DNA of 64,000 nt from a bacterium (GCA_965216315.1 CBDCFN010000016.1:1-64000); one strand, 5' to 3'. Shown: positions 19,301-51,947, counted from the first letter of the stretch. Notes: generated from the letters alone by a model not told the origin. A program made the numbers and translations.

Positions 19301-19466
19301 GTTATTCTCGAGTCTATGGGAGTATTATAATAGATGTCAAGCCGCCCGGAAACACCCTATTTATCGGTATTGAGGCGCTTATGTTGCGTCCCTTGCGTCG
19401 GTCTCATAGAGGGTGTAGGTTCACAGTCAGCGGAGTCTGTAGAAAAGGTCAAGCCTGAAGGAAAAC

Positions 19467-22210: not shown

Positions 22211-22662
22211 AATGCCCCGCTTGCTCCCATTCCGATACCCGCGTCGTCGATTCGCGCCTCGGTAAAGACGGCGAAATTATCCGGCGTCGCCGCGAATGCG
22301 AATCCTGTACCCATCGCTTCACGACCTTTGAACGGATTGAAGAATCCTTGCCCATGGTTGTCAAAAAGGACGACCGTCGCGAGACTTTTAACCGCGATAA
22401 GATCCTCTCAGGCCTGAAGCGTGCCTGCGAGAAGCGGCCAATCAGTATCGAGACCTTGGAAGAAGCCTTAAGCCGCATTGAGAAAACGGTTCAAGAGCGC
22501 GGCGACAAGGAAATCGATGCGACGATAATCGGTCAGTTGGTGATGGAAGAATTAAAAAAGCTCGACCAGGTCGCCTATGTGCGCTTTGCATCCGTCTACC
22601 GCGAGTTCAAAGACATCAACGAGTTCATGCATGAGCTCAAAGGACTCTTAGACAAAAAATAA
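22207..22662 (+). CDS. nrdR: Transcriptional repressor NrdR
   Basis: CPAC...[12 protein letters not shown]-cone and [10 protein letters not shown]. Confidence 0.96.
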
Positions 22663-23691
22663 TTGAGTGCGGAGAGCAAGGAAGCGGTATCTGAGTTTCT
22701 TTTGAAGCCGCATTTGAGCTTTCTTAATCGTGCTGGGGCTGACACTCAGCCGTCTTGCATATTTCGAGATAGAAAAATCTCCTTCGAGTAGCCCACGTAA
22801 GATCTCTTGTTCAATGTGTGTAAGGAACGGTTGATCGGAGAGCTGGCGTAAAGCCTCGAGGACGCGTCGGCAATCCAGCCTGCTATCTAATTTCAGCATG
22901 GTGGTGTCAACGGCTGTTTCAAGTGGTTCCATCCTGAGAGGATCGGTCATCGGGACGCGGCCATCACTAGCATGTTTGGGAGCCATGCGGTGCGGATGAT
23001 ATTCATAAAAGATAGTTTGTAAGGTTCTTTCAATGGCTTTGAATTGTGACCATTTGTTTGACCTTGTTGCGTCTGCAAATTTCTGTTCGGCTTGTTGCAG
23101 TAAAGGACTGAGAGCTGCCATCCCGAGGGCGCCTTCGCGAGCAGAATGGTCCCGGGCCTGTTCGCGAAGCGTTTCAAGTCTTCTCTCAAGCTCGCCATGT
23201 TTCAATTTATCTAGCGCCTTTTTTCTGATCCGACGAATCACGCTGGAACTTTCCTGAAAACTTTCGGCAAGCCAGTTGAGTGACTGTTCGACTTCTAATG
23301 GAGAAAGCCCACGGGCACCGAGGCCCAAGAGATATTCGATGGTATGGGCAATATTCCAGTAGCGACTGGCCGTTATTTTATTGGCTCCCTCAGTTCTTTC
23401 CCATTGATCAGCCATCGTGCAGATTTGATTTGCTCGCGTCAGCACGCTTTCCCATTGTTTTCCTGCTAGGCCTGGGTAGCTTTGCAGCCATCTATTTTGA
23501 CGTACAAGAAGATCACTAGCCGTAGAGTTTGTATCTTGTGCCGTGCTCGTTGTAAGAAAAGTACTCGGGCTTAGGGTGAATTGGCCAGGAAGCGGTGTCG
23601 TGCTATCACCATTGGGAATATGAGGGTCGCTGGAGGCGAGTAGGGCCATAGCGGTATTGATCGAAAGAGCATTGAGTGAACTCACAAACAT
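22648..23691 (-). CDS. Orphan protein with S/T/A/L-rich N-terminus and C-terminal sigma-region-4-like HTH
   Basis: 347-aa ORF; C-terminus [45 protein letters not shown]; upstream sigma28-like motif. Confidence 0.7.
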
Positions 23692-23700
23692 GATGCCCCT

Positions 23701-23727
23701 CTATCGGCATGACTATCCTGATGTTGC
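23701..23727 (-). promoter_or_regulatory. Sigma28-like promoter motif, copy 1
   Basis: GCAACATC-N11-GCCGATAG, 9 nt before the ATG at 23691. Confidence 0.7.
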
Positions 23728-23784
23728 GGGTTTACTAATCCTGTCAGTAGGTCTGTATTTGCTTGTTAAGGTCTTATCGCGCCC

Positions 23785-24693
23785 CTACCAGTTAATCAAA
23801 AACCAGCCCCGGTCGGGGTGATAGTAGAGGTTGGTGCTCCAGTAGGGTTCGCCGTAGACCCCACCGTTACCGAAGGAATCGATGACATTGTCACTAGGGA
23901 GCATGGCATTGCGAGGCGCAAGATATCCGAGACTGCGTGCGGACCAATTGAGAGTGTGGTCGTTGTTGGCCGTGCGAATTTGTTTCCGAATCCGATGTAG
24001 GCCTTCGAGTGCCGTGTCACCATATTCTTGGCGAACAGCTGCCTCGACGTGCTTCCAGTTATCCGCCATATACTGGTTTGCAATTTGATCCAGGCTCTGG
24101 GCGTTAGCGGGGATGCGTTCCCGGATGATCACGCCGGACTCGCGGGCCAGTTGCAGGGCCGTTGCATCTTGACGGAGACGAAGATGGGGAATGTCTAGGT
24201 GGTCCAAGACCGCTTCGATGTGGAGCTTGCGGACGGCCTTGATCGTTTGCACGTGGGCGAGCAGAACGTGATCCGGGCCGAGCTCATAGATTTCCGCGGT
24301 GGGCCAACGTTTATTCGCATCGAGGCGCCGACCGATGCGTTCGGGTGCAAGGCGCTTTGATCGAGCAATCTCCTGTACCACGCTTCCTTGAGTCGATGAG
24401 CCATTAAAGAAGTCGCGATTGGTGATCATCTCGCCCCCAAACGGATCCGGGATGTGTGTCTTGTCTGCAAGGACGAGGTCAAAGGAAGCCGGGGCCGTGA
24501 TTTGAGCGAGAGCCGGAGTCCGACCCAAGCGCAGGTCCGTTAAACTAGGTCTGGAAACGGGGATAAAGCGGCTGACCGTGCCAGTTCCGGTAGAAGCACA
24601 AAGCATGGGAGTTGTCAGGGAAGCCGTCAGGGTGGTCTGGCTCAGGGCCGTAATTGTGGAACCGATCATCGCATTTCCTCTCTTACGCCCCAA
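23785..24693 (-). CDS. Orphan protein with S/T/A/L-rich N-terminus, possible degenerate kinase-like fold
   Basis: 302-aa ORF (alternative ATG at 24669); segments LDHLDIPHL, VIIRERIP and NLYYHPDRGWFLINW. Confidence 0.65.
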   Translation of the reverse strand: MGRKRGNAMIGSTITALSQTTLTASLTTPMLCASTGTGTVSRFIPVSRPSLTDLRLGRTPALAQITAPASFDLVLADKTHIPDPFGGEMITNRDFFNGSSTQGSVVQEIARSKRLAPERIGRRLDANKRWPTAEIYELGPDHVLLAHVQTIKAVRKLHIEAVLDHLDIPHLRLRQDATALQLARESGVIIRERIPANAQSLDQIANQYMADNWKHVEAAVRQEYGDTALEGLHRIRKQIRTANNDHTLNWSARSLGYLAPRNAMLPSDNVIDSFGNGGVYGEPYWSTNLYYHPDRGWFLINW

Positions 24694-24705
24694 AACTCCT
24701 AAATA

Positions 24706-24732
24706 TTATCAGCGTAGAATTCGAAATGTTGT
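24706..24732 (-). promoter_or_regulatory. Sigma28-like promoter motif, copy 2
   Basis: ACAACATT-N11-GCTGATAA, followed by AGGAG and the TTG start. Confidence 0.7.
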
Positions 24733-24818
24733 GCGGCGAATTATGCGAATATTTGCAGTGGTGAGGTTAAGGTCATTTTCTTGACTGATGTCCCAAAAAT
24801 GATAACTGAAAGGGTCTG

Positions 24819-25916
24819 ATGACCGATCACGAAGCATACATGCAGCTGGCGTTAGATGCGGCGGCCAAAGGCTTGGGGCGAACGGCACCGAATCCACCGG
24901 TTGGGGCCGTGATCGTCAAGCGCGACAAGGTGGTCGCTACGGGGTATCATCGCAAGGCGGGCGGGCCCCACGCGGAAATCTTAGCGCTGCGCAAGGCCAA
25001 AGGCGCGGCCAAGGGTGCCACCTTGTATGTCAGCCTTGAACCCTGTTCGCACCAGGGCAAGACACCTCCCTGCGTCGAAGCGATTCTGGCGGCCGGTATC
25101 AAGCAAGTGGTCGTCGGCATTAAAGATCCGCACGCCCGCGTCAACGGGAGCGGGATCCGGGAGCTCCGGCGTGAAGGTGTGAAGATAATAGTTGGTGTTC
25201 TCAAAGAGGCCTGCGACATTTTCTATCGTCCTTACCGGGTCTTCATTAAAGAGAAGCGTCCTTTTGTGACCTTGAAGGCGGCGATGTCACTCGATGGAAT
25301 CGTGGCGACGACGAGCGGCGAGTCCCAGTGGTTGACGGGTCGGGAGGTCCGCGACCACGTTCATCAACTCCGCGATCAAGTCGATGCGATCATGGTCGGA
25401 CGTGGGACGGTGGACATTGATGATCCGCGCCTAACGACCCGGCTTCCCGGTAAGAAGAAGGGTCATGATCCGATTCGCATCATTCTCGATAGCCGCCTCC
25501 ATATCTCGCCGGCGGCACGCGTGCTGCGGCTTCGTTCCGAGGCGCCAACCTTATTAGTGGCCACTCACGAAGCGACGCGCATGCGGGAACGTATGTTGAC
25601 CGAGCATGGCGCGGAGGTCATGCGTTGTCGGGCGAATGCGCTGGGTCGCATTGATCTCAAAAGGCTGCTGCGCCAGTTGGCCAAGCGCGGCATCATGCAT
25701 CTATTGGTGGAAGGCGGACCCACCGTCCATTCCCGTTTCGTCCAGCGCGGCCTCGTCGATCGACTCTCCCTCTATATGGCTCCTATCCTCTTGGGAGGCC
25801 ATGGCGAACCGCTGTTAGCGGATCTGAAGATTGCGGGTCTGCGCAAGGCGGTAAAAATCAAGAATTCCTGTGTGCAGCAGCTTGGCAAGGACCTCTGGGT
25901 CGCTGGCGAGTTGTAA
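24819..25916 (+). CDS. ribD: Riboflavin biosynthesis deaminase/reductase
   Basis: PNPPVGAV, HAE, LEPCSH...PPC and LVEGG. Confidence 0.96.
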   Translation: MTDHEAYMQLALDAAAKGLGRTAPNPPVGAVIVKRDKVVATGYHRKAGGPHAEILALRKAKGAAKGATLYVSLEPCSHQGKTPPCVEAILAAGIKQVVVGIKDPHARVNGSGIRELRREGVKIIVGVLKEACDIFYRPYRVFIKEKRPFVTLKAAMSLDGIVATTSGESQWLTGREVRDHVHQLRDQVDAIMVGRGTVDIDDPRLTTRLPGKKKGHDPIRIILDSRLHISPAARVLRLRSEAPTLLVATHEATRMRERMLTEHGAEVMRCRANALGRIDLKRLLRQLAKRGIMHLLVEGGPTVHSRFVQRGLVDRLSLYMAPILLGGHGEPLLADLKIAGLRKAVKIKNSCVQQLGKDLWVAGEL

Positions 25917-26029
25917 GCCGCCTCCGTAATAAGGTCTTTTTTGCGCTTTTTTTGCCTGCCCGGCGAATATCTGGCATAATCAATAGATGACGCAACTCGT
26001 TGGCGTCGCAGCGACGATACATTATTAGT

Positions 26030-28690
26030 ATGAAGAGGTATGCCCTGAAAGTGCGCCGAATTCTTAATGTTTTTGCAATAGGCCTGTTGCTGGGCTTCAC
26101 CGCTTGCAGTGGTGGAGGCGGCAGTTCTGATTCCGGCACCATGGATCGCCTCGAGGGGCAGTGGATCAGTCAAAACGTCAATGCCAACGGCGAGAATACC
26201 CGTGTGACCTTTACGAAGGATGAAGCCTTCAAGGTGGAGGCCTACAAAGTTGCGGGGGGAGCCGTCCAAACCGCCTTGCTCGACCAAGGTTCCTTTAGGG
26301 CCCAGCCGGGGACGATCGACTTTCAATTCAATAATGGCACTCAGGTGACGAGTGTCCTGACCTTCGTGCATGATAACCAAATTATGATCGACGACATGAC
26401 CCTGCTGCGCGCGAACCCGGACGGGACGATTGCCGGCGGGACGATCTCCGGACAGATTCTTATCAATGACGGTTCCGACGAGAGTGCCAGTAGCACGGCC
26501 TCGATTGCAAGTTCGATGCAGGGACTTTCGATCAGCGAAGACCCGCCAGAGGAAGCGCCAGAGGAAGCGTCCGCTGCCAAGCAGGTGAAGAGAAAACCGC
26601 TGATCGTCAGGCGTGCGAAGATTCGTGACTATGCTACTATTCATGTCCTTTATAAAGACGGTCGAAGAGAGAGAATTCACCTGGAAAAAGCACCTGACTT
26701 GGTTGAAAGCGTAAACGCAGCGAAAAATGTTGAGCAACGTTTTCAGGCGCTGTCGACTGTGCGTAAAGATCTCGAAGAAAGAGCGGATGAAAAATTTGAG
26801 CTGTATAAGAATGATCCTAATGTGAAGCACGTTTACAAGTCTTCAAAGGATCTTAATCGCATGAAGGTCCAGAGCATTATGGTTCCCAATGACCCGTCTT
26901 ATGACCGGCAATGGGGCATGCGTTCGGTCAACGCCCCGGGGGCGTGGGCCATCTTGGACAATGTTACCCTGAGCGACGGGACCGTGGCTGTCATCGATAC
27001 CGGCAAGGGTCAAAATGATGATGATTTGCCGGCAACGATCTTTGCCGATGGTTGGGACTTTATCAGTAACAGCGGCACTGATGCGAATCTTTCCTTGGAT
27101 GGCAACAATGAAGACAGTGACGAAACCGATCCCGGCGACAATGCGGGCGGGCCCGGTGTGCATAGCTGGCACGGCACGCACGTAACGGGGATCATTGCAG
27201 CGGAGCGCAACAACGACAGCGGGATCGCCGGTGTCAATAAAAAGGCGAAGGTGATGCACGTTCGCGTGATGGGAAATCAGGGCTTCGGTGACTTTCCGGA
27301 CATCGCGAACGGGATTCGTTATGCCGCCGGCCTGATTGACAGCACAGGCGCGGTGGCGAACATTGATCCGCCGCCGGCGAAGGTGATTAACTTAAGTATC
27401 GGCTGCGTTATTTTAGATGATTCATTTACGGGTGATGTCCCGGAAGGAACCCCGACCTGTGAGGCGACGGCCCTCGAACCGGTCAAGACTGCGATCGAAG
27501 ATGCGATTGCCAAAGGCGTGATTGTCGTGGCGGCAGCCGGTAACTGCGTATTTTATCCGACCGGGTGTGACCTTCCATTTTATCCGGCAAATTATCCCGA
27601 TGTTATTTCGGTGGGTGGCTTAACGAGTCACGGCAGTTTTGCCGCGGATTTTTCGCATTATGGAGCCAACCAGTTTTTAACGGCGCCGTCCGGGAGTCTC
27701 GAACCTTCATCGACGGAGGACAATGCGTACTTGGGATCCGAGACGCAGGTCTATAGCACCGTGTATAACGGCTGGGCCCCGTTGGCGGGCACAAGTCAAG
27801 CCGCTCCTTTCGTGACCGGGGCGATCAGTGCGATGCTGTCGATTGATGGGACTTTAACCGCAGCCCAGATCAAAACAATTTTGGAAAATACGGCGCTCGA
27901 CATGGGAGAGACGGGCCAGGATGATAAGTATGGCCACGGTGTGCTCAATATCGGTGCCGCCGTGGAGCAAGTGGCGACGGATGCGGGCAAGGATTTAAGC
28001 GGCGTCGATGCGGCCGCGTTGATGGTCAGTCATAACAACCTCAACTATGGTCAGGTCAAAGATCAGAAGACCGTGTTCCTTCACAAGGTCGGGACCGGGG
28101 CCTTGACCGGACTTGATGCGACGAAATCCGCGCCTTGGATTTCCGAAGTCGATCTCAGTGATACCGCGGCACCGGCGACGTTGACGATCAAGGTAGATCG
28201 TTCCGGGTTGGAGCCGGGGAGCTATTCATCGACGGTGAGCGTGACTTCCTCGAATGGGAGTGAAGACATTGAAGTGTCCATTTCGGTGGCGGCGCCGGAT
28301 CCGGAATCCTCATCACTTCCCAGTGGTTCGTCCGGTGGGACCGAGGGAACGGATTCTTTTGATGAATGGCTCGAACAGGTTGACGATATTTTCGGCAAGG
28401 TCAATACCAAGGATACCGGCGAGCTGATTGTGCTCTTGATCAACGCGGATACGAATAAACCTTACACGGGAGTCCGTACCGATTTTGGCGCTGATTATCG
28501 CTTCTATTTCGGAGCGCTTCCGGATGGCAATTATTGGGTTCTGGTCGGCAAGCGGACACCCAGCGACCAGATCTGCGATATGGTCAACTACCCGGATTAC
28601 CCCTGTAGTTCCTATCCGACCTACGATAGTCCCCAGAAATATACCATTCAGGGCGCGACTGTTGTCGACAACGTCATTGTTGGGCTCTAA
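26030..28690 (+). CDS. Lipoprotein S8 subtilisin-like serine peptidase with a BACON-like beta-rich C-terminal region
   Basis: Lipobox FTAC; catalytic triad VAVIDTG / HGTHVTG / AGTSQAAP. Confidence 0.9.
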   Translation: MKRYALKVRRILNVFAIGLLLGFTACSGGGGSSDSGTMDRLEGQWISQNVNANGENTRVTFTKDEAFKVEAYKVAGGAVQTALLDQGSFRAQPGTIDFQFNNGTQVTSVLTFVHDNQIMIDDMTLLRANPDGTIAGGTISGQILINDGSDESASSTASIASSMQGLSISEDPPEEAPEEASAAKQVKRKPLIVRRAKIRDYATIHVLYKDGRRERIHLEKAPDLVESVNAAKNVEQRFQALSTVRKDLEERADEKFELYKNDPNVKHVYKSSKDLNRMKVQSIMVPNDPSYDRQWGMRSVNAPGAWAILDNVTLSDGTVAVIDTGKGQNDDDLPATIFADGWDFISNSGTDANLSLDGNNEDSDETDPGDNAGGPGVHSWHGTHVTGIIAAERNNDSGIAGVNKKAKVMHVRVMGNQGFGDFPDIANGIRYAAGLIDSTGAVANIDPPPAKVINLSIGCVILDDSFTGDVPEGTPTCEATALEPVKTAIEDAIAKGVIVVAAAGNCVFYPTGCDLPFYPANYPDVISVGGLTSHGSFAADFSHYGANQFLTAPSGSLEPSSTEDNAYLGSETQVYSTVYNGWAPLAGTSQAAPFVTGAISAMLSIDGTLTAAQIKTILENTALDMGETGQDDKYGHGVLNIGAAVEQVATDAGKDLSGVDAAALMVSHNNLNYGQVKDQKTVFLHKVGTGALTGLDATKSAPWISEVDLSDTAAPATLTIKVDRSGLEPGSYSSTVSVTSSNGSEDIEVSISVAAPDPESSSLPSGSSGGTEGTDSFDEWLEQVDDIFGKVNTKDTGELIVLLINADTNKPYTGVRTDFGADYRFYFGALPDGNYWVLVGKRTPSDQICDMVNYPDYPCSSYPTYDSPQKYTIQGATVVDNVIVGL

Positions 28691-28735
28691 TGACCCGATA
28701 TTGACGCCTTTCCTTTCATCCTCTACACATAGACT

Positions 28736-29359: not shown

Positions 29360-29471
29360 CCATAGTCATGGGGAAGAAAAACTCTCTCCCCCCTGACAAC
29401 CCCCCATCGTGGGATTCCAGGCTGTAGCAACATTTGCTGTTTTAGACCGATCTGGGGTAAGGAGATGCAGT

Positions 29472-30698
29472 ATGCCTATTCTGGAAATTGATGAAGCGAT
29501 TCAGCGGGTCAAAAAAGCCATTGCCGAGGTCCAGGCGGGCCGCATGGTGGTGATGGTTGATGATGCGGATCGTGAGAATGAAGGCGACCTCGTCATGGTT
29601 GCCGAAAAAGTCACGCCGGAAGCGATCAATTTTATGGCCCGGTATGGACGCGGTTTGATATGCCTTTCACTCTCCGAAGACCTGTGTGATCGGCTTCACC
29701 TTCCCTTGATGACCCAGGACAATACAGCGAGTCACGGGACCAATTTTACTATTTCGATTGATGCGCGTGAGGGAACAAGTACGGGAATTTCCGCGAGTGA
29801 TCGCGCGACGACGATACTTAAGGCGATTGCCGATAATGCGCAGCCCACTGACTTTAGTCGGCCGGGGCATATCTTTCCGCTGAGGGCTCAGAGTGCCGGT
29901 GTGCTGGTACGCAGTGGGCACACCGAAGGTTCGATTGATCTCGCCCGTATGGCCGAGTTTAAATCGGCTGCGGTCATCTGTGAGATCATGAACGAAGATG
30001 GTTCGATGGCGCGTATGGGAGATCTGGAAAAGTTCGCGAAACAACACGACCTGATGATCGTTACGATTGCGGACCTGATTAAGTATCGTACCCGTTATGA
30101 AACTTTAATTAATCGTGCCGCCGAGGCAAAGCTACCTTCTTCTTATGGTGATGATTTCAGGATCATGGCTTATGAAAATGATGTTGATGACCGGACTCAT
30201 GTGGCTTTAGTGAAAGGCGAAGTGGATCCGGAGAAACCTGTCTTAGTTCGAGTCCATTCCGAGTGTTTGACCGGAGACGCCTTTGCATCTTTAAGATGTG
30301 ATTGTGGCACGCAATTGCACGGCGCTTTGGAAGCGATCGCGCAGGCGGAAAGCGGTGTCTTTCTTTATATTCGCCAAGAAGGTCGCGGGATTGGACTCCT
30401 CAATAAAATTAAGGCCTATGCGCTGCAAGATGAAGGCTATGATACGGTGGAGGCCAATGAAAAATTGGGTTTTGGTGCGGACCTGCGTCACTATGGGATT
30501 GGTGCCCAGATCCTCGTTGATCTCGGAGTTCGAAAGATACGGTTGCTGAGTAACAATCCTCGCAAGATAGTCGGCCTGGAGGGTTATGGTCTCGAGGTTG
30601 TTGAACGTGTTCCCATCGAGAGCCATCCGAATGAGGCCAATCGTGAGTACCTTCGCGTAAAGAGAGAGAAACTTGGTCACCTCCTCACCAAAATCTAA
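29472..30698 (+). CDS. ribBA: Bifunctional DHBP synthase / GTP cyclohydrolase II
   Basis: [25 protein letters not shown]...RCDCG and QEGRGIG. Confidence 0.96.
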
Positions 30699-32114: not shown

Positions 32115-32123
32115 GAGGCTATT

Positions 32124-32939: not shown

Positions 32940-32956
32940 GGGCGCAGCGCCCCTAC
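32938..32956 (-). repeat. Short GTAG-type REP-like palindrome overlapping the stop codons of two convergent genes
   Basis: Reverse complement gtaggggcgctgcgccctt; its TAG is the stop of the 32953 ORF. Confidence 0.55.
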
Positions 32957-34305
32957 AATTCTTCTATTGGTAAGGGGTTGGCGGCGAGAAATCTATCGCC
33001 CTCCCAACCACTGATTACGTCGATACTGATATCCAAATATTTATCGCGATACTCTTCTTCAGTGATCAGGCCGGCGTCGAGCTGATAGCGCCGCAACACT
33101 TTGGGAATGAAATTACTGATGAGGGTGGCACTTTTCGGCCAGGGTCCGCTTCTCTTAAGATAAAGCAGGCGGGCGATCGTAAATGCGAGCCCGACCTTTT
33201 GAATGCCTGTGGACCGCGATTGATCCGGTTTGAAATTCCCTTCGCCCCGTAGCGAAACATGTGAGGGAGAGCGCGAAATATTATTAGAGCTACTCGCAAC
33301 GACTTCTCCATCCAAGGTTCGCATAATGAGAATGAGGTTAGCGTCGGGATTATTGGACGTGCGGCTGATGATGTGTCTGACCTCAGCTCCTACCGGGCCG
33401 GCAAGTTCACGCTCGGCCTCTGCCGGTGAAAAACGTTCGATAATCACCGGACAATCGCGCCCCTGTCGTTGCAGCGTCATTTTGAGGGGTGGGAATTCGG
33501 GGTCGCGTCGGGGAGTAAACGATAGTTTTGTTACGATGGGAATGTCAGGAATGGGCTCGGGGCGCGCCCGTTCAGCCAATTCATCGGGAGTTAAGAGCTT
33601 TACATCGGTGAGTTTCGTTGCCGCGGAGGGCAGGGCGCTCGTTCCTTCAACGCGCCCCAGAATATAGGAGGATCCGTCGAGCAGGCCGCCTAAAGCGACT
33701 TCAAGTCCGTTGATAATCATGTAGTCAGCGCTGCGATGACTCTTGGTGAGCGTAATCGGTGCGATTGTTCCATGAATGACCGGTTCATGCTGCCAGCGGG
33801 AGACGTCAACGGCGGGAATATGGTCGACCTCGCTGAGCAAGTCCGCCAGCCGGAAATAGGCGCGGTAATTGCGGCGGCGCTGCGGTTGCTGACTGATCGT
33901 AATCAACGGGGATTGATGGGTAATCTCCGCTACATTTAAAAAAGCCGGGTTTGGAATGATGGCGGGTAAAGCCATCACGATGGTTCCATCGGCCTCCGTC
34001 TGGAGAAAGTCTTCGTAACGGGAATTTTCAATCACGTGTGCGACTAAGGCGGTCTTGGTGTCGCGTGCCCAACGCATACCGGTGAGTCCTCCGTGAGTTC
34101 GATTCATCATGTAGAGCCGATTCAAGTCGTCGATGGCTTCGAACTGGACAGGGAGCTCACCTCGTTCGAAACGATTCATGAATTGTTGTTCTTGTGCGCG
34201 GGCCCGCGGCGGAGCGCTTGCGGTCAAATGCTGAGTAGAACTCGCGGCCAGGAGGCCGGTCGCATAGAGCCCGGACAGCGTCGTTGCGGTGAGAAAAAGA
34301 GACAT
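32953..34305 (-). CDS. Orphan protein with S/T/A/L-rich N-terminus and possible C-terminal GNAT-like segment
   Basis: About 450 aa; start moved to MSLF because the upstream ATG overlaps the promoter motif; segment ILIMRTLDGEVVAS...KPDQSRSTGIQKVGL. Confidence 0.65.
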   Translation of the reverse strand: MSLFLTATTLSGLYATGLLAASSTQHLTASAPPRARAQEQQFMNRFERGELPVQFEAIDDLNRLYMMNRTHGGLTGMRWARDTKTALVAHVIENSRYEDFLQTEADGTIVMALPAIIPNPAFLNVAEITHQSPLITISQQPQRRRNYRAYFRLADLLSEVDHIPAVDVSRWQHEPVIHGTIAPITLTKSHRSADYMIINGLEVALGGLLDGSSYILGRVEGTSALPSAATKLTDVKLLTPDELAERARPEPIPDIPIVTKLSFTPRRDPEFPPLKMTLQRQGRDCPVIIERFSPAEAERELAGPVGAEVRHIISRTSNNPDANLILIMRTLDGEVVASSSNNISRSPSHVSLRGEGNFKPDQSRSTGIQKVGLAFTIARLLYLKRSGPWPKSATLISNFIPKVLRRYQLDAGLITEEEYRDKYLDISIDVISGWEGDRFLAANPLPIEEL

Positions 34306-34313
34306 CAATAGCA

Positions 34314-34340
34314 TTGTCGCGATGCAGACAAAAAAGTTGT
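34314..34340 (-). promoter_or_regulatory. Sigma28-like promoter motif, copy 3
   Basis: ACAACTTT-N11-CGCGACAA, 8 nt before the ATG at 34305. Confidence 0.6.
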
Positions 34341-34399
34341 CGGCCGCCGTGGCGGAAATATCTCTTCAAGTTATTGTTTTTTATGGGAAAATTTGCTTC

Positions 34400-34426
34400 G
34401 AAACTTTTCGCATAAGGACGCGATAA
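34400..34426 (+). promoter_or_regulatory. Sigma28-like promoter motif, copy 4
   Basis: GAAACTTT-N11-CGCGATAA, 9 nt before the ATG at 34436. Confidence 0.65.
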
Positions 34427-34435
34427 AGGCACGCT

Positions 34436-35857
34436 ATGGTCTTGAGTGCGTCTCTCGCAAATGTGCAGGGGCTCGTGCAGCAGGGTTCTTTGGCGCAAGC
34501 GGCGACGACCCTGGGGCACTATTCCCATGTTGTATCAGGTATCGATTGGTTGGCGACAACCGCCACCGTGATTGCAGGTCTCGATCACGAGGAATCCGTA
34601 CGGCAGCATGCCCTGTCCCAGTTGCTGGCGAGCGAACCGGTGACGCGCCTCTTTCATTCTGACGACAGAGCGGTTTTTTCGGCGTCGGTTCGGTCGATGA
34701 CTTTCGACCATTTGCGTTCCCATGAAGCGGCAGTAGCGCATTTAATCGGGAGCTTTCCTGATTGGGATGAGCGGGTCGTCCAGCTCAGTCTGGCGAGTGT
34801 GATTCAGGCCGGTGGCCTGGGGGACTTAGTCCTGCAACTGGAACGCCGTTACGGCGATTTTACTGCTGAACAGTCGGCCCAAGCGCGGGAAGAGTTGCAG
34901 AGAACACGGGTGAATTTTAGCTCGGAATTTAAGGAATTTCGTCATTTTTCCATTGCGGAGAAACAGGCGGCTGTACGGGGAAAATGTACGATTCCCTTGG
35001 AACACAAAGAAATCATCGATGATAAATGTCGCAGTGTTAATTTTGTTCATACCCTGCTCGATCTGGCTTTTATACGCGCCTATCTGGATCGGACCTATCC
35101 GATGCATGAGCTCTATGCGCAGGGCGATCGGCCCCGCCTATTCAGTAATTATTTGCGCAGCATTCAAGACAGCGATGATTACGGGAATGGGAGCTGCATG
35201 CCGGCGACGACTCTGGCGGCCGATTTAGGCCTGCGGGCCGGCTTCGATTTCAAGTTTCTTCACCACGTCGGTCACGTCAATCTCTATCACGCGCCATCCC
35301 ACGTCGTCTTTGAGCCGGCACCCGGCGTCAACGATACGATTAATTTATTGAGTCGCTTCCAGCGCGGTGGGGCCTACGGAAGAACACAAACACCGACCCC
35401 TTTGGCGGCGTTGCTGGTCGGAGTCGCCGGCAATGTTCTCGTCGCGGAACGGCGCGAAGCGGACCTCGACGGCGCGGAGCGACTCTTTGCCGGTTTGGAG
35501 AAATTAGGCGCGCCGTCCAGTGCGTTTTATCTCCAAAAGGTTGAAATCGCCCTGTTGAGGCAAGACCCGGTCGCTGCGGAGCAAGCAATGCGTAAAGGGC
35601 TGGCCGTGAATGCGACCGATTACCGGCTCGTCGCGAGAGGCTTCGATATCATGGCGTTACGTGATTCCGAGCAGGCCTTAAAACGTGGGGAGGCTATCTT
35701 GTGTCAGCTGACCGGGATGCGTCAGCGCATGCGGGCGACTTTCGGCGAAGGTCAGCTCACCCAAATTGATCGGTGGGCGCGTTCCCTGCGGCGCCGCATC
35801 GGGGACACCCGTGAGCGGATCCGCACTCAACAACGGGCCGGCGACCGCGAGGACTAG
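34436..35857 (+). CDS. Orphan protein with a transglutaminase-like (Cys-His-Glu) segment and TPR-like C-terminus
   Basis: GNGSCMPATTLAADLGLRAG...HHVGHVNLY...VVFEP, followed by helical repeats. Confidence 0.65.
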   Translation: MVLSASLANVQGLVQQGSLAQAATTLGHYSHVVSGIDWLATTATVIAGLDHEESVRQHALSQLLASEPVTRLFHSDDRAVFSASVRSMTFDHLRSHEAAVAHLIGSFPDWDERVVQLSLASVIQAGGLGDLVLQLERRYGDFTAEQSAQAREELQRTRVNFSSEFKEFRHFSIAEKQAAVRGKCTIPLEHKEIIDDKCRSVNFVHTLLDLAFIRAYLDRTYPMHELYAQGDRPRLFSNYLRSIQDSDDYGNGSCMPATTLAADLGLRAGFDFKFLHHVGHVNLYHAPSHVVFEPAPGVNDTINLLSRFQRGGAYGRTQTPTPLAALLVGVAGNVLVAERREADLDGAERLFAGLEKLGAPSSAFYLQKVEIALLRQDPVAAEQAMRKGLAVNATDYRLVARGFDIMALRDSEQALKRGEAILCQLTGMRQRMRATFGEGQLTQIDRWARSLRRRIGDTRERIRTQQRAGDRED

Positions 35858-36004
35858 CCGTTTACTATTTTATTGAAAATACTATCTCAATTCCCTCTAG
35901 CTTAAATAGGCATTTCAATATAAATTAAATAATATCAAATAGTTATATTAATATATTAATTGAAGCAGTGTATACTCTCGTCAACAAATTCTCCGTCAAA
36001 ACAC

Positions 36005-36031
36005 GCACCTAAAGCGGCCCCCCGCCGATAA
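36005..36031 (+). promoter_or_regulatory. Sigma28-like promoter motif, copy 5
   Basis: GCACCTAA-N11-GCCGATAA (perfect FliA -10 box) upstream of the tandem paralogs. Confidence 0.65.
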
Positions 36032-36114
36032 TACAATCAAATTCGGCAAGACCGGCTTATCCAGCCATGAGTCATTGCCTGGTGCAAAAAACTTTTTAAG
36101 TGGGAGACGGAAAC

Positions 36115-36798
36115 ATGACAGTATCAAATGTAGATCAAGGTTATATCAATCGTTATGTAAGCGCGGCCGTGAAATTAAATCCGAAGATGACGCGTGAGCA
36201 GATTGATTTTGCCTTGAGTCATACGATCGTCAGAGAGATGGGGGAAAAGGGCAAGGTCGTCAATCGCGAGGCCCTCCTGAAAGATATCCGGGCGAGTAAG
36301 GGTGTCGTTCCGCAACAGGCAACGGGAGCCCAGCTGCAAGGTGATCCTCCCAATGAATTGCCCAAGGTGAAAGACCCAGAACCAGTTGTTGAAAAGAAGG
36401 CACGCATTACGGAAGAAGTTATCTATACGGGTTACTTCCCGCCTTATCTCGGAGAAGGAAGTTCGCTGGGTGTCCACTTGAACAAGCTCTTGGGCGCACA
36501 AAATATTGCCGTGCAGGGAATTACGCTGGTCAGTGAGCCACGTGAATTACCCGCAAATAATAAGAATGTCGTCGGCATGTGGGTAGCAATTTCCGAAGAC
36601 GGAAGCGTTGGTGTGAACTACCGAGTTGTTCATGGCAAAGACTTGATTGAAGAGAATAAACTTGCGGTCGCGATGTTCAACTGGTTGGAGAAGGACAAAT
36701 TTCCGGAAGATGCACGTCCAGAAGGTTGGGTGTACGTTGAAGTTCAGCTGGCGCCGCCCGCTGAGAAGCAGGACGATAAGATAGCGCTAAATTTCTAA
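36115..36798 (+). CDS. Hypothetical protein, paralog A
   Basis: GGAG RBS; N-terminal block (AAVKLNP..QI.FALSHTI.REM.E.GKVV.R) shared with the next gene. Confidence 0.8.
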   Translation: MTVSNVDQGYINRYVSAAVKLNPKMTREQIDFALSHTIVREMGEKGKVVNREALLKDIRASKGVVPQQATGAQLQGDPPNELPKVKDPEPVVEKKARITEEVIYTGYFPPYLGEGSSLGVHLNKLLGAQNIAVQGITLVSEPRELPANNKNVVGMWVAISEDGSVGVNYRVVHGKDLIEENKLAVAMFNWLEKDKFPEDARPEGWVYVEVQLAPPAEKQDDKIALNF

Positions 36799-36900
36799 AC
36801 GAATCTATCGGGGGATAGTGTTATGTCAGGTGCGAATTTCCGGCAAATGCCTGTCCCTCAATACTAATCATTTGCAACAACAAAATTGGGAGACATTTAA

Positions 36901-37506
36901 ATGGCAGTAGGAAGTACACAATCAGGAGTCAGCCAAGCGTATTTTGATCAATACGTCGAGGCGGCTGTAAAGTTAAATCCGGGAATGGATCAGGACCAGA
37001 TCAAGTTTGCCTTGAGTCACACGATTGCCCGCGAGATGCGCGAGCAGGGCAAGGTTGTCGATCGTACTAAGCTTATGGCTGACATTGGGAAAACGAAGGG
37101 TCTGCAATTAGCGAAGGCTCCTTCCGCCGTACTCCACGGAAATCCGCCTAAGGTTGAGAAAGCCACTGTCAATACGAGTGCCTTTGTGGGGCATGTGGGC
37201 ACTTTAATTGCAGGAGCAGGTATTGACGAAGCCACTGTCAGCATCGTTCCAAAGCCGACCGATGAGACGCCAGAAAAACCAAATACGGTGATACTTGAAG
37301 TTCAGTTGCTTGACGGCGGAATGGTCCATAACGTTAAAGCTGTAAGAGGCGAAAAGCGTGTCGATCATAATAAATGGGTAGAAGCTATGAATCCGATGAC
37401 AAAGAATTTCCCGGCAGGCTCATTCCCTAAAGTTAACGAGCACGGTATTAGTACCGTCTACGTTCAAGTTGAGTTGCCGCCGCCGGCTGAAAAGCCTGGG
37501 GCCTAA
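36901..37506 (+). CDS. Hypothetical protein, paralog B
   Basis: GGAG RBS; shares the N-terminal block and the C-terminal VYV.V.L.PPAEK with paralog A. Confidence 0.8.
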   Translation: MAVGSTQSGVSQAYFDQYVEAAVKLNPGMDQDQIKFALSHTIAREMREQGKVVDRTKLMADIGKTKGLQLAKAPSAVLHGNPPKVEKATVNTSAFVGHVGTLIAGAGIDEATVSIVPKPTDETPEKPNTVILEVQLLDGGMVHNVKAVRGEKRVDHNKWVEAMNPMTKNFPAGSFPKVNEHGISTVYVQVELPPPAEKPGA

Positions 37507-37904
37507 ATTGCTTCGAGTAACGTCATTACACGTTTTCTAAGCTCATCGCGCACCGCACGAAAGTTCTCCAATGTCTCGCCGATGGGGTCGTGGACCGTCC
37601 AATCCACGTGCTCCTCGGCGGGGACATAGGGGCAACGATCCCCGCACAGACTAATCACATAATCAAAATTTTGCTTCGGCAGATCATCGACGGACTTCGA
37701 CCACTGTGCGGAGATGTCGATACCGGCTTCGAGCATCACGGCCTGGGTTTCGTCGGGAACGCTTCCCATCGGAGCGGAACCGGCACTAAAGACTTCGATG
37801 TCGTCGCGGTCCTGTTCGGCCGCGAAGTGACGGAGAAAGCCTTCCGCCATCTGCGAACGGCAGGCGTTGCCGATACACACGAATAGAACGGTTGTAGTAC
37901 TCAT
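37503..37904 (-). CDS. arsC: Arsenate reductase / low-molecular-weight phosphatase family
   Basis: VLFVCIGNACRSQMAEG, SAGS and W...DP. Confidence 0.85.
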   Translation of the reverse strand: MSTTTVLFVCIGNACRSQMAEGFLRHFAAEQDRDDIEVFSAGSAPMGSVPDETQAVMLEAGIDISAQWSKSVDDLPKQNFDYVISLCGDRCPYVPAEEHVDWTVHDPIGETLENFRAVRDELRKRVMTLLEAI

Positions 37905-37922
37905 GTTTCAGTAGCTGGTTAA

Positions 37923-38036
37923 GTAAACCTGTAGCTTTGCTAGCAGGTTTACGTGGGGGTATGGGGGATATCGGCAGTGAGGTCAAGTATAGAAAGACGC
38001 GAGTAGCAACGATAACGAGCTGCCGGGTCCCCCATT
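37923..38036. repeat. Structured intergenic element with two stem-loops
   Basis: gtaaacctgtagc-ttt-gctagcaggtttac, then atggggga..cggcag...ctgccg..tcccccat. Confidence 0.6.
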
Positions 38037-38037
38037 C

Positions 38038-39444
38038 TCATGCCGCTTTGCCGTGCGGAAGCAACTCCGGAATCTCTTCTTCGGTTGTGGGGGGGTGCTT
38101 GATGGGCACAAGCAGTGCGACGGGAGCGATCAGCAGTCCGAGCCCACTCATCGCAAAGAGACTGACGGTTCCCACTGCCATTCGCAGGACGCGCCGCCAG
38201 GCGGAGTGGTTGATCTTGTTGCGTGCCTGCGCCCGGTCCCATAGGGCTTGGCTGCGGTGGCTGGTAAAGGCTTTGAAGTGAGTGGCAAATAAACCAGTGA
38301 GCTCAGGTCGTTGTGAGACATGGGCGACGGTTTTGACCATGCGCCGTGCCATAAAGCCGTAAAAGAGGTTGAAGAGGCGATGATAGAGTCGATATTCCTC
38401 AATCCGGTTGGGATGCTGAATCAGGCTTTCCAAGAGGATGCATTCGTAAAAGATGCAATGAGAGCGTTTGTCTTCGATCAGAGAATGGAGGAGATTTTTC
38501 TCTTTGGGTCGGTGTTGGCTCAGCCAATAGGCAAACGTGCTCGAATAAAAACTCAGCCACTCTTCGAAGGCCGTCAGAGTATGGCACAGGATGGCATTTC
38601 GGCTCAGTCCACAAGTCCAGCGGATAACGCGCGTAAAGTAACGGTGCCAGAAACCGAGGCGCTTTTCGTCGCTCGTCGTTTCACCGGACAACTGATGGGC
38701 AATGCGGGTATGCCGGTATCCATTGCGGACGATATTAATCAGTTCGCGGCTTTCCCAAAAACTCTGGCTCCACGACAGTCTGCGGAGCTGAAGTCCGCAA
38801 TTGCCTAATTCGCACACGAGCAGATTGATAAAGCCCGGCAGCGCTAATGAGGCCTGCTTAGTTGCCATGCCGGGGATGACCGGATCAAAGGCGGGGTCTT
38901 CAAGGTGAGGGGGCTCCGATTCCGGGTGGCGCCATATCTCGGTGCCATGCGTGCGCTCGAGGCTGACGCCAATCTGCCGACTCCAATACCTTAAGGCCTC
39001 CATTTCTTGTTCACTAAAGTCGCCATCGATTTTGTTGACGAGTTGGATGATCGCGACGATGGGCTGCTGCTCGTCACCTTCACGGTAAACGGGAACCGTT
39101 AACATGGATTGGGTCTGAAATCCCTTCGGGTCTTTATTAAAGTAGTGACCGAACTCAGAGTTTGGAACGTCGTTTAAAAGCAGCGGTGTTTTCTCTTGAT
39201 AGACGCGTCCCGCGACCCCCACATCCCAGGGCAGTTCGATGTCCCAGGTAAAACTGCTGGCGGCGCGGCTGCGCAGCAATTGCTGCTCAGGGACCGCGAG
39301 GAATAAGTTAGTCCGTTCCACACTAAAGAGATCGCAGAGTAGGGTGACCAGACTATCCCACAAGAGATGGACTGCGGGGGGATCCATCAAGCACTCCCAT
39401 AAACGTCGCGCCTCCGCCGAACTCAGCAGGTAGATATGGTTCAT
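38038..39444 (-). CDS. GAF domain fused to a ferritin-like helical domain and a C-terminal TM segment
   Basis: GAF motifs GVAGRV, TQSMLTVP and QLVNKIDGDFSEQE; helical region with GYRH, AFEE and DKRSH. Confidence 0.7.
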   Translation of the reverse strand: MNHIYLLSSAEARRLWECLMDPPAVHLLWDSLVTLLCDLFSVERTNLFLAVPEQQLLRSRAASSFTWDIELPWDVGVAGRVYQEKTPLLLNDVPNSEFGHYFNKDPKGFQTQSMLTVPVYREGDEQQPIVAIIQLVNKIDGDFSEQEMEALRYWSRQIGVSLERTHGTEIWRHPESEPPHLEDPAFDPVIPGMATKQASLALPGFINLLVCELGNCGLQLRRLSWSQSFWESRELINIVRNGYRHTRIAHQLSGETTSDEKRLGFWHRYFTRVIRWTCGLSRNAILCHTLTAFEEWLSFYSSTFAYWLSQHRPKEKNLLHSLIEDKRSHCIFYECILLESLIQHPNRIEEYRLYHRLFNLFYGFMARRMVKTVAHVSQRPELTGLFATHFKAFTSHRSQALWDRAQARNKINHSAWRRVLRMAVGTVSLFAMSGLGLLIAPVALLVPIKHPPTTEEEIPELLPHGKAA

Positions 39445-39589
39445 CTAGTGCCATGGTACTAAAAAAATATTGAAATTTGGAGGCTAAAAAAGCTTTTATT
39501 ATGACGCAGTTAGGAAATTTTATGACTTAAAATTATCAATTTGAGAAACATCAGCAAGTCTGGTGCCTTAGCCATTTTAGGGCAAATAC

Positions 39590-39683
39590 GACGGGTGACC
39601 CGAGTGAGAGTTTTGCGAGCGAGACCGAGCTGGGAAAGCGAGGCGAGGGAGTCACAAACTCTCACGGGAGGGCAGGACCCGTC
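39590..39683. repeat. Structured intergenic element with nested inverted repeats, after the dcd stop
   Basis: gacgggt...acccgtc ends; gtgagagttt/aaactctcac inner stem; gcgagcgaga and aaagcgag in the loop. Confidence 0.6.
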
Positions 39684-39687
39684 ACAA

Positions 39688-40245
39688 TTATTCTACTTTA
39701 GCAGTCGTGATAGTTTTCTGACCCTGATACTTTCCGCCCTTGTCTTTGTACGAGGTCTCACAGACTTCGTCAGCGCTGACGAAGACGATCTGGGCGATGC
39801 CTTCATGGGCATAGAGGCGAACGGGTTGGGAACTGACGTTGAAGATCTTCATCGTCACGACTCCCTCCCATTCCGGTTCTAAGGGAGTGATATGAGGCAG
39901 CACGCCGCAACGTGCATAGGTGGATTTGCCGAAACACAAGACGAGCACATCGCGAGGGATACGAAAGTATTCTAGCGACCGCCCCAGCACCGAGCCACCT
40001 GCCGGAATGACAACGGAGTCTGCGCGTGCCGACTCATACTTGAGCGATGATTTCTTTTTGGGGTCGAGCACCTGGCCCTCATCAAGTTGGGGGAATTGAA
40101 ATTCATCGGCGAGACGCATGTCGTAGCCGTAAGCAGAGACCCCGTAGGAAATAACCCCTTTGCCGACGGCATTGGGTTCGAACGGCTCGATCATGCCGTG
40201 TTCCGTGGCCATGCGACGGATCCAGTGATCTGGCTTAACGGACAT
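39688..40245 (-). CDS. dcd: dCTP deaminase
   Basis: ISYGVSAYGYD, GKSTYARCG, TPLEPEWEG and GKYQGQ. Confidence 0.95.
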   Translation of the reverse strand: MSVKPDHWIRRMATEHGMIEPFEPNAVGKGVISYGVSAYGYDMRLADEFQFPQLDEGQVLDPKKKSSLKYESARADSVVIPAGGSVLGRSLEYFRIPRDVLVLCFGKSTYARCGVLPHITPLEPEWEGVVTMKIFNVSSQPVRLYAHEGIAQIVFVSADEVCETSYKDKGGKYQGQKTITTAKVE

Positions 40246-40246
40246 A

Positions 40247-40289
40247 AGAATGGGGGGCTGTGCTTCGCCCAATTCCCCCCATACCCCCT
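40247..40289 (-). repeat. Short hairpin element sharing termini with the 37955-38036 element
   Basis: Reverse complement gggggtatggggg...cccccattct. Confidence 0.5.
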
Positions 40290-40384
40290 TTCTGGTTCGC
40301 TCGAATGAAGTGAATTCATTCGAGCTTACACGCGGTTGAATAACTTAGAACGTTATTTCTCAGGTGGAGACAGGAGTCAAGGAA

Positions 40385-41764
40385 TCAACCGCTGACAAGT
40401 TCGCTTGCATGGGAGCGATCGAAAAGACTGGCGGGATCTTGGCCGACATGGAGATTGGCCTGGAGGTGGGCGGCTGTCTGTTTGAGTGCAAAGGCGAAGC
40501 CCGACGTCGGATCGGCTTCAATGGCCTCACGCACGAGTTGATTGACGTGAGCAGCGCTTTCGGGCGCACCGGCATCGGCAAGCGTACGCGCGAGTTTCGT
40601 CAACAGCATGGCGCGGTCGGAGGCATCACTTATTCTTGAGGCGATGTCTAATGAACTGGTCAGCCAGTTGAGATGCATGAGACGAAGATACCAGTTGAGG
40701 GTGGCCTCCGCGATGAAACTTAAAGTCGTATTGTGACTGGCCTCTGAGGGCTGCTGCGCGATTGCGTTGACCAATTCGTCGATTAGCTGGGGGCCCAGCG
40801 GGCCCAGTCCCGCTGGCGGGAGATTCGCTGCCAGCGTGCGCAGCCGGTGACTGCGGTGGACCGGATCGGTGTCGGCCTGGGCATGGGATAAGATGTGTCG
40901 AAATAATGAGGGGATCAGGGCATGGCGACCTCGTTTGCTGAGAAGGCTCATGGCTTGGCACAACGATGCGGTATCACCTGTCACGTGCAAATCGCTGATG
41001 AGCTGATCGCCCCACTCGTGAAGTCCATGTTGGTAAAATAAGGCAACGTGGCGGAGCAGGCAACGATGACGAGTGCCACTATCTTCAATGCGGCTGAGGG
41101 CGTTACGTGTTTCCGTGAGGAGTGTGAGCGGGCGCGCGATCGCCGGCTGTATCATATACGTTTCACTGATGAGAAATTGGAGTCGCGACTGAAACGAGGC
41201 ATCGGTCAAGCTGAGGCCATCCTGCTTCGCTCGTTCCAGCGCATGTCCTGCGAGCAAAGGCTCCTTATGTTCGGCGGCCTTGCGGGCAAAATAAACGAAA
41301 CTCTGTCCCCGGTATTCAGGCAGACCCATTTGTTCGACTTGCCGCAGTTCCGCTTCCAAGCTTGGATCCAGGTCGATGGACGCTAAACCGGGATGGCCCA
41401 GCTGAAGGGACCCCAAGATTTCGGTGCAATAGCTTTGAATTAAGTCGGGAGCGAGGAAAAAGGGGGTGAAGCCGGGTTGCTGCACGATGCGGGCGAGGCC
41501 TGCCGGGAGGGAGTGATCGGTGCCGAGCTCTCGTTGCAATAAAGTTTGAAAGCGCCAGACGGCCTGACTCAGATCACGGGAGCCGGCTTGAAGGGCCTGG
41601 AGTCCCCGTTCGGGTTGGGCAAAGGCCTGGGCCGCCGTGCGCAGGGCCTGCGGATCCCGCCGCGAAACGGCGCCTTGATCCTGCAGGACCGAGCAGACCA
41701 GGCTGCCAAAGGAGGTGGCCGCGAGAGCCGTGGGTGTTAGCAAGGTTGAGGTAAACATAGACAT
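40385..41764 (-). CDS. Orphan alpha-helical repeat protein with S/T/A/L-rich N-terminus
   Basis: 459 aa; TPR-like repeats such as LDIASRISDASDRAMLLTKLARTLADAG. Confidence 0.7.
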   Translation of the reverse strand: MSMFTSTLLTPTALAATSFGSLVCSVLQDQGAVSRRDPQALRTAAQAFAQPERGLQALQAGSRDLSQAVWRFQTLLQRELGTDHSLPAGLARIVQQPGFTPFFLAPDLIQSYCTEILGSLQLGHPGLASIDLDPSLEAELRQVEQMGLPEYRGQSFVYFARKAAEHKEPLLAGHALERAKQDGLSLTDASFQSRLQFLISETYMIQPAIARPLTLLTETRNALSRIEDSGTRHRCLLRHVALFYQHGLHEWGDQLISDLHVTGDTASLCQAMSLLSKRGRHALIPSLFRHILSHAQADTDPVHRSHRLRTLAANLPPAGLGPLGPQLIDELVNAIAQQPSEASHNTTLSFIAEATLNWYLRLMHLNWLTSSLDIASRISDASDRAMLLTKLARTLADAGAPESAAHVNQLVREAIEADPTSGFAFALKQTAAHLQANLHVGQDPASLFDRSHASELVSG

Positions 41765-41812
41765 TGCAAATACTTGTAAATATTAGTTTAAAGGCCCTCC
41801 TGGGGCCGTCCC

Positions 41813-41839
41813 TTATCGACGAAAATTGGGAAATGTTGC
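41813..41839 (-). promoter_or_regulatory. Sigma28-like promoter motif, copy 6
   Basis: GCAACATT-N11-GTCGATAA upstream of the 41764 gene. Confidence 0.7.
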
Positions 41840-51875: not shown

Positions 51876-51947
51876 ATTGATGAATTATACGCTTGGGGCG
51901 TGGGTAAAGGCAGCAATATTTAGAATCTATTGAAATCACTGATTTAA

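Follow-up and report, generated by a model that had tools for sequence, protein, structure and literature searches.

What reads the short motif that recurs in front of orphan genes at this locus, and what are the products of those genes for? The locus lies in a window of 64,000 nt (the whole stretch analysed, G000:C16:1-64000) from a bacterial genome of the phylum UBA10199 (G000; 2.96 Mb, 98% complete). A sequence-only reading had noted six copies of a 27-bp motif with an 8+11+8 layout, each oriented toward an orphan gene, and had attributed them to a specialised FliA-family sigma factor that co-expresses scattered exported effectors. All six copies were recovered at the positions and on the strands it gave, with an ATG 8-83 nt downstream (Table 1). 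The analysis indicates that the motif is probably the promoter of a FliA-derived sigma factor of a type III secretion operon, which would drive late exported parts of the secretion system together with scattered genes for probable substrates.

Regarding the motif itself, a genome scan with a matrix built from the six sites (spacer 11, at least 16 bits) gave 107 matches, 96 of which fell between genes and no more than 200 nt from a gene start, whereas control spacers of 9 and 10 gave 10 matches (none intergenic near a start) and 8 matches (three), respectively. Gene starts are approximate because the 2481 genes of the set were called by a self-trained script. Retraining on intergenic sites outside the window yielded the consensus (C/A)RCAACTTT-N11-GCCGATAA, under which the six window sites score 13.7-23.2 bits. 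At 13 bits or more this matrix finds 222 intergenic sites versus 1-5 for eight column-shuffled matrices, a count that is partly circular, as the training sites were intergenic. Orientation escapes this circularity because it played no part in training: 224 of 231 sites face a gene on the same strand, compared with 922 of 1500 random intergenic positions. Chance or AT-richness is rejected by the column shuffles, the spacer shifts and the orientation, and a repeat or mobile element is rejected as well, since the spacer sequences vary by site and the GC content at third codon positions is 0.57 in the regulon against 0.56 in controls. Sorted by spacer, the intergenic sites number 216 at 11 nt, 40 at 12, 25 at 13, 10 at 14 and 1-4 at each other length from 7 to 17; the GC content of the spacer does not differ between these classes in G000 (p 0.2). 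The strict motif stays at background in Escherichia coli (2 versus 2).

The proposal that the geometry and the -10 box are those of FliA while the -35 box is changed was borne out. The -10 box GCCGATAA (matrix columns 20-27, with CGA nearly invariant) is of the FliA/sigma-28 type, the -35 consensus is RCAACTTT, and the TAAA(GTTT)-type -35 pattern of FliA shows no enrichment at spacer 11 in the genome; a canonical TAAA FliA promoter was accordingly rejected. The distance to the ATG peaks at 5-11 nt (96 ATGs over 222 sites), an indirect hint on the transcription start, and 60 regulon genes begin within 11 nt of the -10 box, 46 of them without a Shine-Dalgarno word.

Five sigma70-family genes are present in G000, of which two encode extracytoplasmic function (ECF) sigmas and a single one is FliA-like. 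The latter (G000:C16:350583-351410) lies between SctJ and SctL/SctN of a type III secretion cluster and has TIGR02479 as its best family (E 1e-38), with 133 bits against a curated cut-off of 189.6. The altered region 4.2 foreseen by the sequence-only reading was found: relative to E. coli FliA, E218K, R220W and Q223R occur in 128/128 orthologues, changing ESRxxQ to KSWxxR, and K208E occurs in 121/128. K208 and R220 contact the -35 element in the E. coli FliA structure (bioRxiv 10.1101/2020.01.02.893370; here and below, statements taken from cited papers refer to the portions of the text available). The -10-reading residues T69, R74, D81, R84 and R91 are retained in 128/128 orthologues. The altered -35-reading helix would thus fit a -35 box of RCAAC instead of TAAA, and it is very likely that the FliA-like sigma reads the motif.

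Two flagellar FliAs from flagellated phylum members, found in the two flagellar loci where a sigma was detected, keep ESRxxQ and are separate from the secretion-locus sigma. No RCAAC site precedes any of 11 flagellin genes; this natural experiment is a weak one because a TAAA-type site was present in just 1/11 of the upstream regions. In a phylogenetic analysis, one branch (Shimodaira-Hasegawa-like approximate likelihood ratio test, SH-aLRT, 97) set eight ESR-type FliAs apart and the phylum orthologues grouped together (94); the placement is tentative, since the tree was a quick one and its branches are long. Two genomes of one family have an additional KSW-type sigma paralogue (L108 in G080 and L109 in G078), which stands alone and whose -10-reading residues are changed. 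In three genomes (G002:C27:39005, G012:C3:7674, G072:C29:25258), sites with a 13-nt spacer lie past the needle gene, some 1-3 kb upstream of the sigma gene, where autoregulation is possible.

The search for type III-like export genes that the sequence-only reading had suggested was productive. The cluster around the sigma holds SctV, FHA-SctD, SctJ, L, N, Q, R, S and T; SctV passes TIGR01399 (806 versus 692) and fails FlhA, and several other Sct assignments are best matches below cut-off. The export apparatus, ATPase and rings (SctRSTUV, N, L, Q, J, D) are thereby present and flagellin is absent in G000. SctU is solitary, adjoining a kinase-FHA pair 450 kb from the cluster (G000:C16:805005-806090). 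The gene after the sigma matches the rod protein MxiI (E 0.012), and a FliK/HpaP-like ruler gene is present. A needle-like gene at C16:347385, found in 84/87 phylum genomes, has a small gene on one side and a CdsG-like TPR gene on the other; this position matches the D-E-F-G-J gene order typical of injectisomes. A profile of the needle C-terminus from 27 loci gave 12 PDB matches, ten of which are PrgI/MxiH needles; the best row (E 3.6e-4) is a 43-residue chain of an EscG-family chaperone complex, which would be the needle peptide, and the remaining row is an unrelated protein. Prediction of a complex between the needle-like protein and the TPR protein scored 0.58 versus 0.00 for the best control, a mark reached by 116/157 solved and 2/215 mismatched pairs, with at least 94% contact agreement between runs and a partner predicted local distance difference test (pLDDT) score of at least 61. 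This lends weak support to a needle-like protein with a TPR chaperone, and it may mirror likeness to solved needle-chaperone complexes. The AlphaFold2 (AF2) model of the needle C-terminus is one helix and uninformative, and the TPR chaperone profile returned generic TPR matches among the 60 shown.

The promoter marks particular genes of this system. The site preceding the needle-like gene of G000 has a 12-nt spacer and scores 18.1 bits; that of the translocator-like operon has an 11-nt spacer and scores 23.8 bits. Among 24 orthologous needle loci (the 27 minus two at a locus edge and one of uncertain start), the needle gene is preceded by a site of at least 12 bits in 22, the spacer being 13 in 21 of them, whereas control spacers gave 0/24. 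Spacer 13 was added post hoc, after the sequences were seen, the initial test with spacers 11-12 having given 1/25; over 30 genomes it is independently enriched, with 138 matches versus 14 at spacer 15. No site was found before SctD (0/22), SctJ (0/32), SctK-like (0/44), SctR (0/30) and SctT (0/30), nor before SctG and the sigma gene (22-44 loci per gene). The genes at G000:C16:362938-371710 (L007, L076) are four paralogues with a common C-terminal coiled-coil-like domain, followed by a fifth gene with a faint needle match (E 0.047), which lies between two SycD/LcrH-like chaperone genes (below cut-off). The paralogues have no family match; these genes may be translocator-like.

Beyond the secretion cluster, 260 of the 2481 genes (about 10%) have a site of at least 14 bits, with spacer 11-13, within 200 nt upstream. 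Pfam families were assessed over the first 500 residues for 144 of the 205 genes having an 11-nt site, those within 40 loci picked for their density, against 144 random first-of-unit genes from the same loci. The expected enrichment of orphans was found: 109/144 regulon versus 48/144 control genes match no family (p 5e-13), and a scan of 31 long regulon tails, with control tails left out, added family matches for two more. The first 20 residues are uncharged in 111/205 regulon and 97/1202 control proteins, the low-charge zone fades near residue 26, LAS-type words are enriched in the regulon N-termini, and Sec-like N-termini are depleted (17/205 versus 277/1202). These features belong to the spacer-11 class (uncharged 110/204, Sec-like 18/204); in the spacer-13 class the counts are 0/21 and 13/21. 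Genes with the leader outside the regulon have a weak site in 10/97 cases, compared with 10/500 controls. Several proteins with the leader duplicate others of the genome, namely GDH, RtcB, a class-V aminotransferase, an amidase, a carboxylase-like protein, kinases and regulators, and the non-regulon paralogues of these have ordinary N-termini by eye. Domains in the regulon include RelA/SpoT, RtcB, GDH, kinases, receivers of response regulators, GGDEF, lysozyme, SLT and LysM, as well as LamG, Ig, CAP and a weak kinase domain. None of the computable outcomes that the sequence-only reading had named as refuting it occurred. The view of the regulon as a set of effectors held in part. The orphans and the Sec-less, low-charge N-termini are enriched as claimed, and housekeeping genes, regulators and Sec/lipoprotein surface proteins are also members; the regulon is therefore a broader programme in which effector-like genes make up about half.

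Three further observations concern regulon genes. An array of about 40 kb (G000:C16:2161605-2201515; L057, L059) holds at least 15 same-strand orphans, each with a near-consensus site (up to 26 bits), several being paralogues with a common Cys-containing N-terminus. A 998-amino-acid (aa) leader protein (G000:C16:91474-94470, minus strand) combines an N-terminal half that is helicase-like by eye with RpoD region 4 at 54% identity. Genes for DUF4423/TIGR02147-type regulators (L058, L060) repeatedly have a site (3/144 at 11 nt, more at 12 nt), which ties this family to the regulon.

The distribution was followed in 87 UBA10199 genomes, each at least 80% complete. The strict motif is present in 87/87 (3-93 copies versus 0-4 for the reversed pattern), as is the sigma orthologue, whose loci contain an SctK-like gene in 44/46 and SctN in 39/46 cases; flagellin occurs in just 10/87, the other 77 showing none. 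One candidate, L055 in G091, was rejected as an orthologue, and four genomes were rejected as outgroups. In an outgroup of 101 genomes from another phylum, 20/25 best sigma matches have the W-type helix, and the strict motif occurs at least once in 27/101 genomes, mostly in 1-5 copies, with 0/5 among those whose top match is ESR-type. The high outgroup counts are doubtful, as the 18 of G093 are two repeated sequences and the 36 of G133 include many near-identical copies. One outgroup W-type sigma adjoins SctJ and SctN; three loci have rod-like genes next to it, and in G133 one rod-like gene is preceded by a site. The sigma, and perhaps also its promoter, would therefore be older than UBA10199, and what is distinctive in this phylum is the large size of the regulon. 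In three distant families, 76/87 sites precede an open reading frame (ORF), and 5/76 of these ORFs match the G000 proteome. The strict uncharged leader is lineage-specific.

Comparison with known systems places the sigma between several precedents. HrpL of Pseudomonas syringae is a sigma dedicated to the structural genes of type III secretion, to effectors dispersed in the genome and to genes other than effectors, and its promoter box is usable for effector discovery (PMC3879358); here, too, the box precedes secretion genes as well as dispersed candidate effectors. HrpL is an ECF sigma of a plant pathogen that reads the hrp box and drives the whole apparatus, whereas here the sigma is FliA-derived with the box RCAACTTT/GCCGATAA, the core apparatus has no box, the regulon takes up about 10% of genes and SctC is lacking. 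The FliA motif of Bdellovibrio bacteriovorus occurs at 92/140 attack-phase promoters (PMC3627812), and there, as here, a sigma-28 has extended beyond flagella to many uncharacterised genes with a shared CCGATA -10 (PMC3627812, PMC5430801). However, Bdellovibrio is flagellated and has a flagellar FliA with TTAAG at -35, whereas here the -35 box and region 4.2 are altered and the sigma lies in a non-flagellar secretion operon, on its own branch. The sigma works like HrpL and Bdellovibrio FliA and belongs to neither, being neither an ECF sigma nor a TAAA-reading FliA. With E. coli FliA class-3 promoters (bioRxiv 10.1101/2020.01.02.893370) it shares the -10 CGATAA core, the 8+11+8 layout and the driving of an exported filament subunit; in contrast to E. 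coli, the -35-contacting K208 and R220 are E and W, respectively. Chlamydia, which lacks flagella and has a type III system, also possesses a sigma-28; this one binds two promoters only (hctB and tsp), neither of a secretion gene (PMC12282069).

The secretion system itself resembles T3SS* (T3SS, type III secretion system) from Myxococcus xanthus, which has SctDJILNQRSTUV and LcrH-like chaperones and no secretin (PMC3459982, PMC10433427, PMC10849154), and is used against bacterial prey with effectors stated to be unknown (PMC10433427). T3SS* is described without needle and translocon and with a Tad pilus; here the needle-like gene is nearly ubiquitous, and neither a paralogue of GspE (PilB/PilT/TadA) or GspF (E<=1e-5) nor a second full secretin was detected among the G000 gene calls. 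FliA is not mentioned in the available portions of the T3SS* papers. No mention of MXAN_2437 was found in the literature. The T3SS* cluster presumably contains a FliA-like gene. No description of the present promoter or regulon was found in the literature, subscription papers and supplements lying outside the search, and none of 23 papers naming UBA10199 has a title or abstract opening on secretion or this regulon.

If the sigma works in this way, the core apparatus would first be made from other promoters. The sigma would then switch on the needle-like subunit, the translocator-like operon and surface lipoproteins, and not the core apparatus, a logic that would parallel FliA turning on flagellin and late flagellar genes. 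It would also turn on the approximately 260 scattered genes; about half of those with an 11-nt spacer would encode either orphans of fast turnover or duplicates of enzymes and regulators, with a leader of some 25 uncharged residues rich in Ser/Thr/Ala, and these proteins would most likely be type III substrates. On balance, the leader proteins are likely to be exported as type III substrates. If they are exported, a bacterial target cell is favoured by a small measure, because the domain content of the regulon fits it rather than a eukaryotic one.

Several results weigh against this reading. Three -10 contacts of the sigma differ from those of E. coli (R94Y, R95A/S, R98K), and 10/20 outgroup W-type genomes have no strict site. 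Sites also occur before SctN (4/39) and SctO (3/33), at counts similar to those from control spacers 14-16. The E-values to PrgI/MxiH are just 0.08-0.8, and the needle-like gene has no Pfam needle match. SctC exceeds the cut-off in 0/51 genomes and the single full secretin of G000 sits in a type II operon, so that, with no dedicated secretin, the outer-membrane route is unexplained; a 253-aa exported protein in the window (16617-17378, minus strand) with Secretin_N and a partial Secretin domain (E ~2e-6) is the sole secretin-like gene besides GspD and a candidate for the absent part. Only 2/8 presumed structural substrates have an uncharged leader, and housekeeping genes (panD, ribBA, BioB, a DEAD helicase) as well as Sec proteins belong to the regulon. 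In the three distant families the uncharged rule holds for 5/25, 11/29 and 2/22 ORFs, counts given without background rates for those genomes, and a LAS-like word for 1/76.

Part of this evidence favours a different view, in which the sigma governs one phase of the life cycle (attack, dispersal or dormancy), as Bdellovibrio FliA does, and the needle is one output. Most orphan proteins would then remain in the cell, and the leader would have another role, for instance as a signal for degradation, for localisation or for translation on near-leaderless mRNAs. The housekeeping, regulatory and Sec genes, the weak leader in distant families, the missing SctC and the Bdellovibrio attack-phase precedent (PMC3627812) all speak for it, and so does the leader being commoner on near-leaderless genes (49/60) than on genes with longer 5' leaders (62/145). 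However, the latter fraction itself exceeds the background of 8%, the sigma lies within the secretion operon across the phylum, the low-charge zone ends at about the length expected for a type III signal, and the duplicated enzymes have the leader while their housekeeping paralogues do not. We regard the life-cycle account as unlikely, though deserving of more weight than the remaining alternatives.

That the proteins are type III effectors aimed at a eukaryotic host such as a protist is improbable. Canonical injectisomes target eukaryotes (PMC3459982), and the needle-like gene, the two SycD/LcrH-like chaperones beside the translocator-like paralogues, and the LamG, Ig, CAP and weak kinase domains would suit such a role; on the other hand, the genome encodes no ankyrin, the 144 regulon proteins contain no LRR, F-box or U-box, an MGxxxS/T start is not enriched (1/205 regulon versus 12/1202), and peptidoglycan hydrolases and bacterial signalling domains are present in the regulon. 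The idea that another factor, one of the two ECF sigmas or a DNA-binding regulator, reads the motif and that the sigma-28 link is coincidental has very little to recommend it: the -10 box and 11-nt geometry are those of FliA, all 87 genomes carry the sigma and its recognition residues do not vary, the needle gene in the sigma's own operon bears the site, and the outgroup genomes with an ESR-type match have no strict site. In its favour, motif and sigma are both universal in the sample, leaving no within-phylum absence control, and some outgroup W-type sigmas occur in genomes without strict sites.

Returning to the window, the features are collected in Table 1. The sequence-only reading had seen no site oriented toward a housekeeping gene; this was mistaken, as panD and ribBA both have one. 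Its pairing of each site with an orphan gene stood for the six sites, which all face genes, and not for the tandem paralogue of the 36115 gene, with which it is probably co-transcribed. The uncharged N-termini were likewise found in five of the seven listed proteins and not in the 36115/36901 pair. Six of the seven genes have no Pfam match, the 22648 gene giving the sub-threshold Sigma70_r4 match; its protein had only a self-match among 5.8 billion proteins, and clusters of the Atlas were reached at 0.91, some being Sigma70_r4. The 32953 family is small, with 43 matches including 32953 itself, mostly with similar leaders, and gave no sequence match in PDB or Pfam, the Atlas yielding unnamed clusters and DUF2686 only. 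Its C-terminal domain (AF2 pLDDT 95) gave a best Foldseek E-value of 2.8e-3 and a VIA Z score of 9.1 (root-mean-square deviation 4.1 over 146 residues), the top rows being nearly all GNAT. Elsewhere in the window are a subtilase lipoprotein gene between ribD and the riboflavin synthase gene (26000-28690, plus strand), a gene for a 1698-aa Ser/Thr kinase-AAA-TPR-GAF-sigma54 activator fusion (43612-48708, plus strand) and a lipoprotein-like orphan cluster (50754-57909). One protein of this cluster, 1117 aa long and rich in Cys, has three nearly identical repeats at its C-terminus and matches TSP_3 weakly.

Table 1. Promoter sites and the genes they face in the window (HTH, helix-turn-helix).
Feature	Position	Strand	Details
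Additional site facing panD	19361..19387	-	20.6 bits; 60 nt before panD (18908-19300; TIGR00223)
347-aa orphan, uncharged leader, C-terminal sigma-region-4-like HTH	22648..23691	-	Pfam Sigma70_r4 E 9e-5, sub-threshold
Promoter site	23701..23727	-	11-nt spacer; 20.1 bits; ATG 9 nt downstream, near-leaderless
294-aa orphan, uncharged leader	23785..24669	-	No Pfam match; no paralogue in genome
Promoter site	24706..24732	-	13.7 bits; ATG 36 nt downstream
Additional site facing ribBA	29427..29453	+	15.5 bits; 18 nt before ribBA (29472-30698)
450-aa leader protein, C-terminal GNAT acetyltransferase-like fold, unnamed family	32953..34305	-	Sequence search and predicted structure
Promoter site	34314..34340	-	17.1 bits; ATG 8 nt downstream; back-to-back with the 34400 site
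Promoter site	34400..34426	+	17.8 bits; ATG 9 nt downstream
473-aa orphan, uncharged leader	34436..35857	+	Pfam scan, paralogue search, leader rule
Promoter site	36005..36031	+	14.3 bits; ATG 83 nt downstream
227-aa orphan, Sec-less, outside uncharged rule	36115..36798	+	Pfam scan, leader rule
201-aa tandem paralogue of 36115 (35% identity), without own site	36901..37506	+	Window site scan, paralogue search
459-aa orphan, uncharged leader	40385..41764	-	Self-trained gene model begins two codons later, at 41758
Promoter site	41813..41839	-	23.2 bits

A bolder picture, which we put forward tentatively, is that a type III system with a needle and no secretin stands at the centre of UBA10199, as a surviving intermediate between flagellum and injectisome that has kept the sigma-28 logic. 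The rewired sigma would drive the needle and surface lipoproteins through 13-nt spacers and more than 100 effectors per genome through 11-nt, often leaderless promoters; these effectors, including repurposed metabolic enzymes, sigma-region-4 mimics and GNAT enzymes, would be injected into bacterial prey or hosts. Such a system would bear on the cargo of secretin-less type III systems, whose Myxococcus effectors are stated to be unknown (PMC10433427), and on the question, raised by a proposal in PMC3459982, of whether the ancestor of non-flagellar systems possessed a needle but no secretin. The sigma and its promoter form a natural variant of FliA in specificity. UBA10199 is known from genomes alone; for this phylum the finding provides a lifestyle hypothesis and a testable effector list, and, if the reading is true, the motif would be the key to the effector catalogue of every UBA10199 genome.

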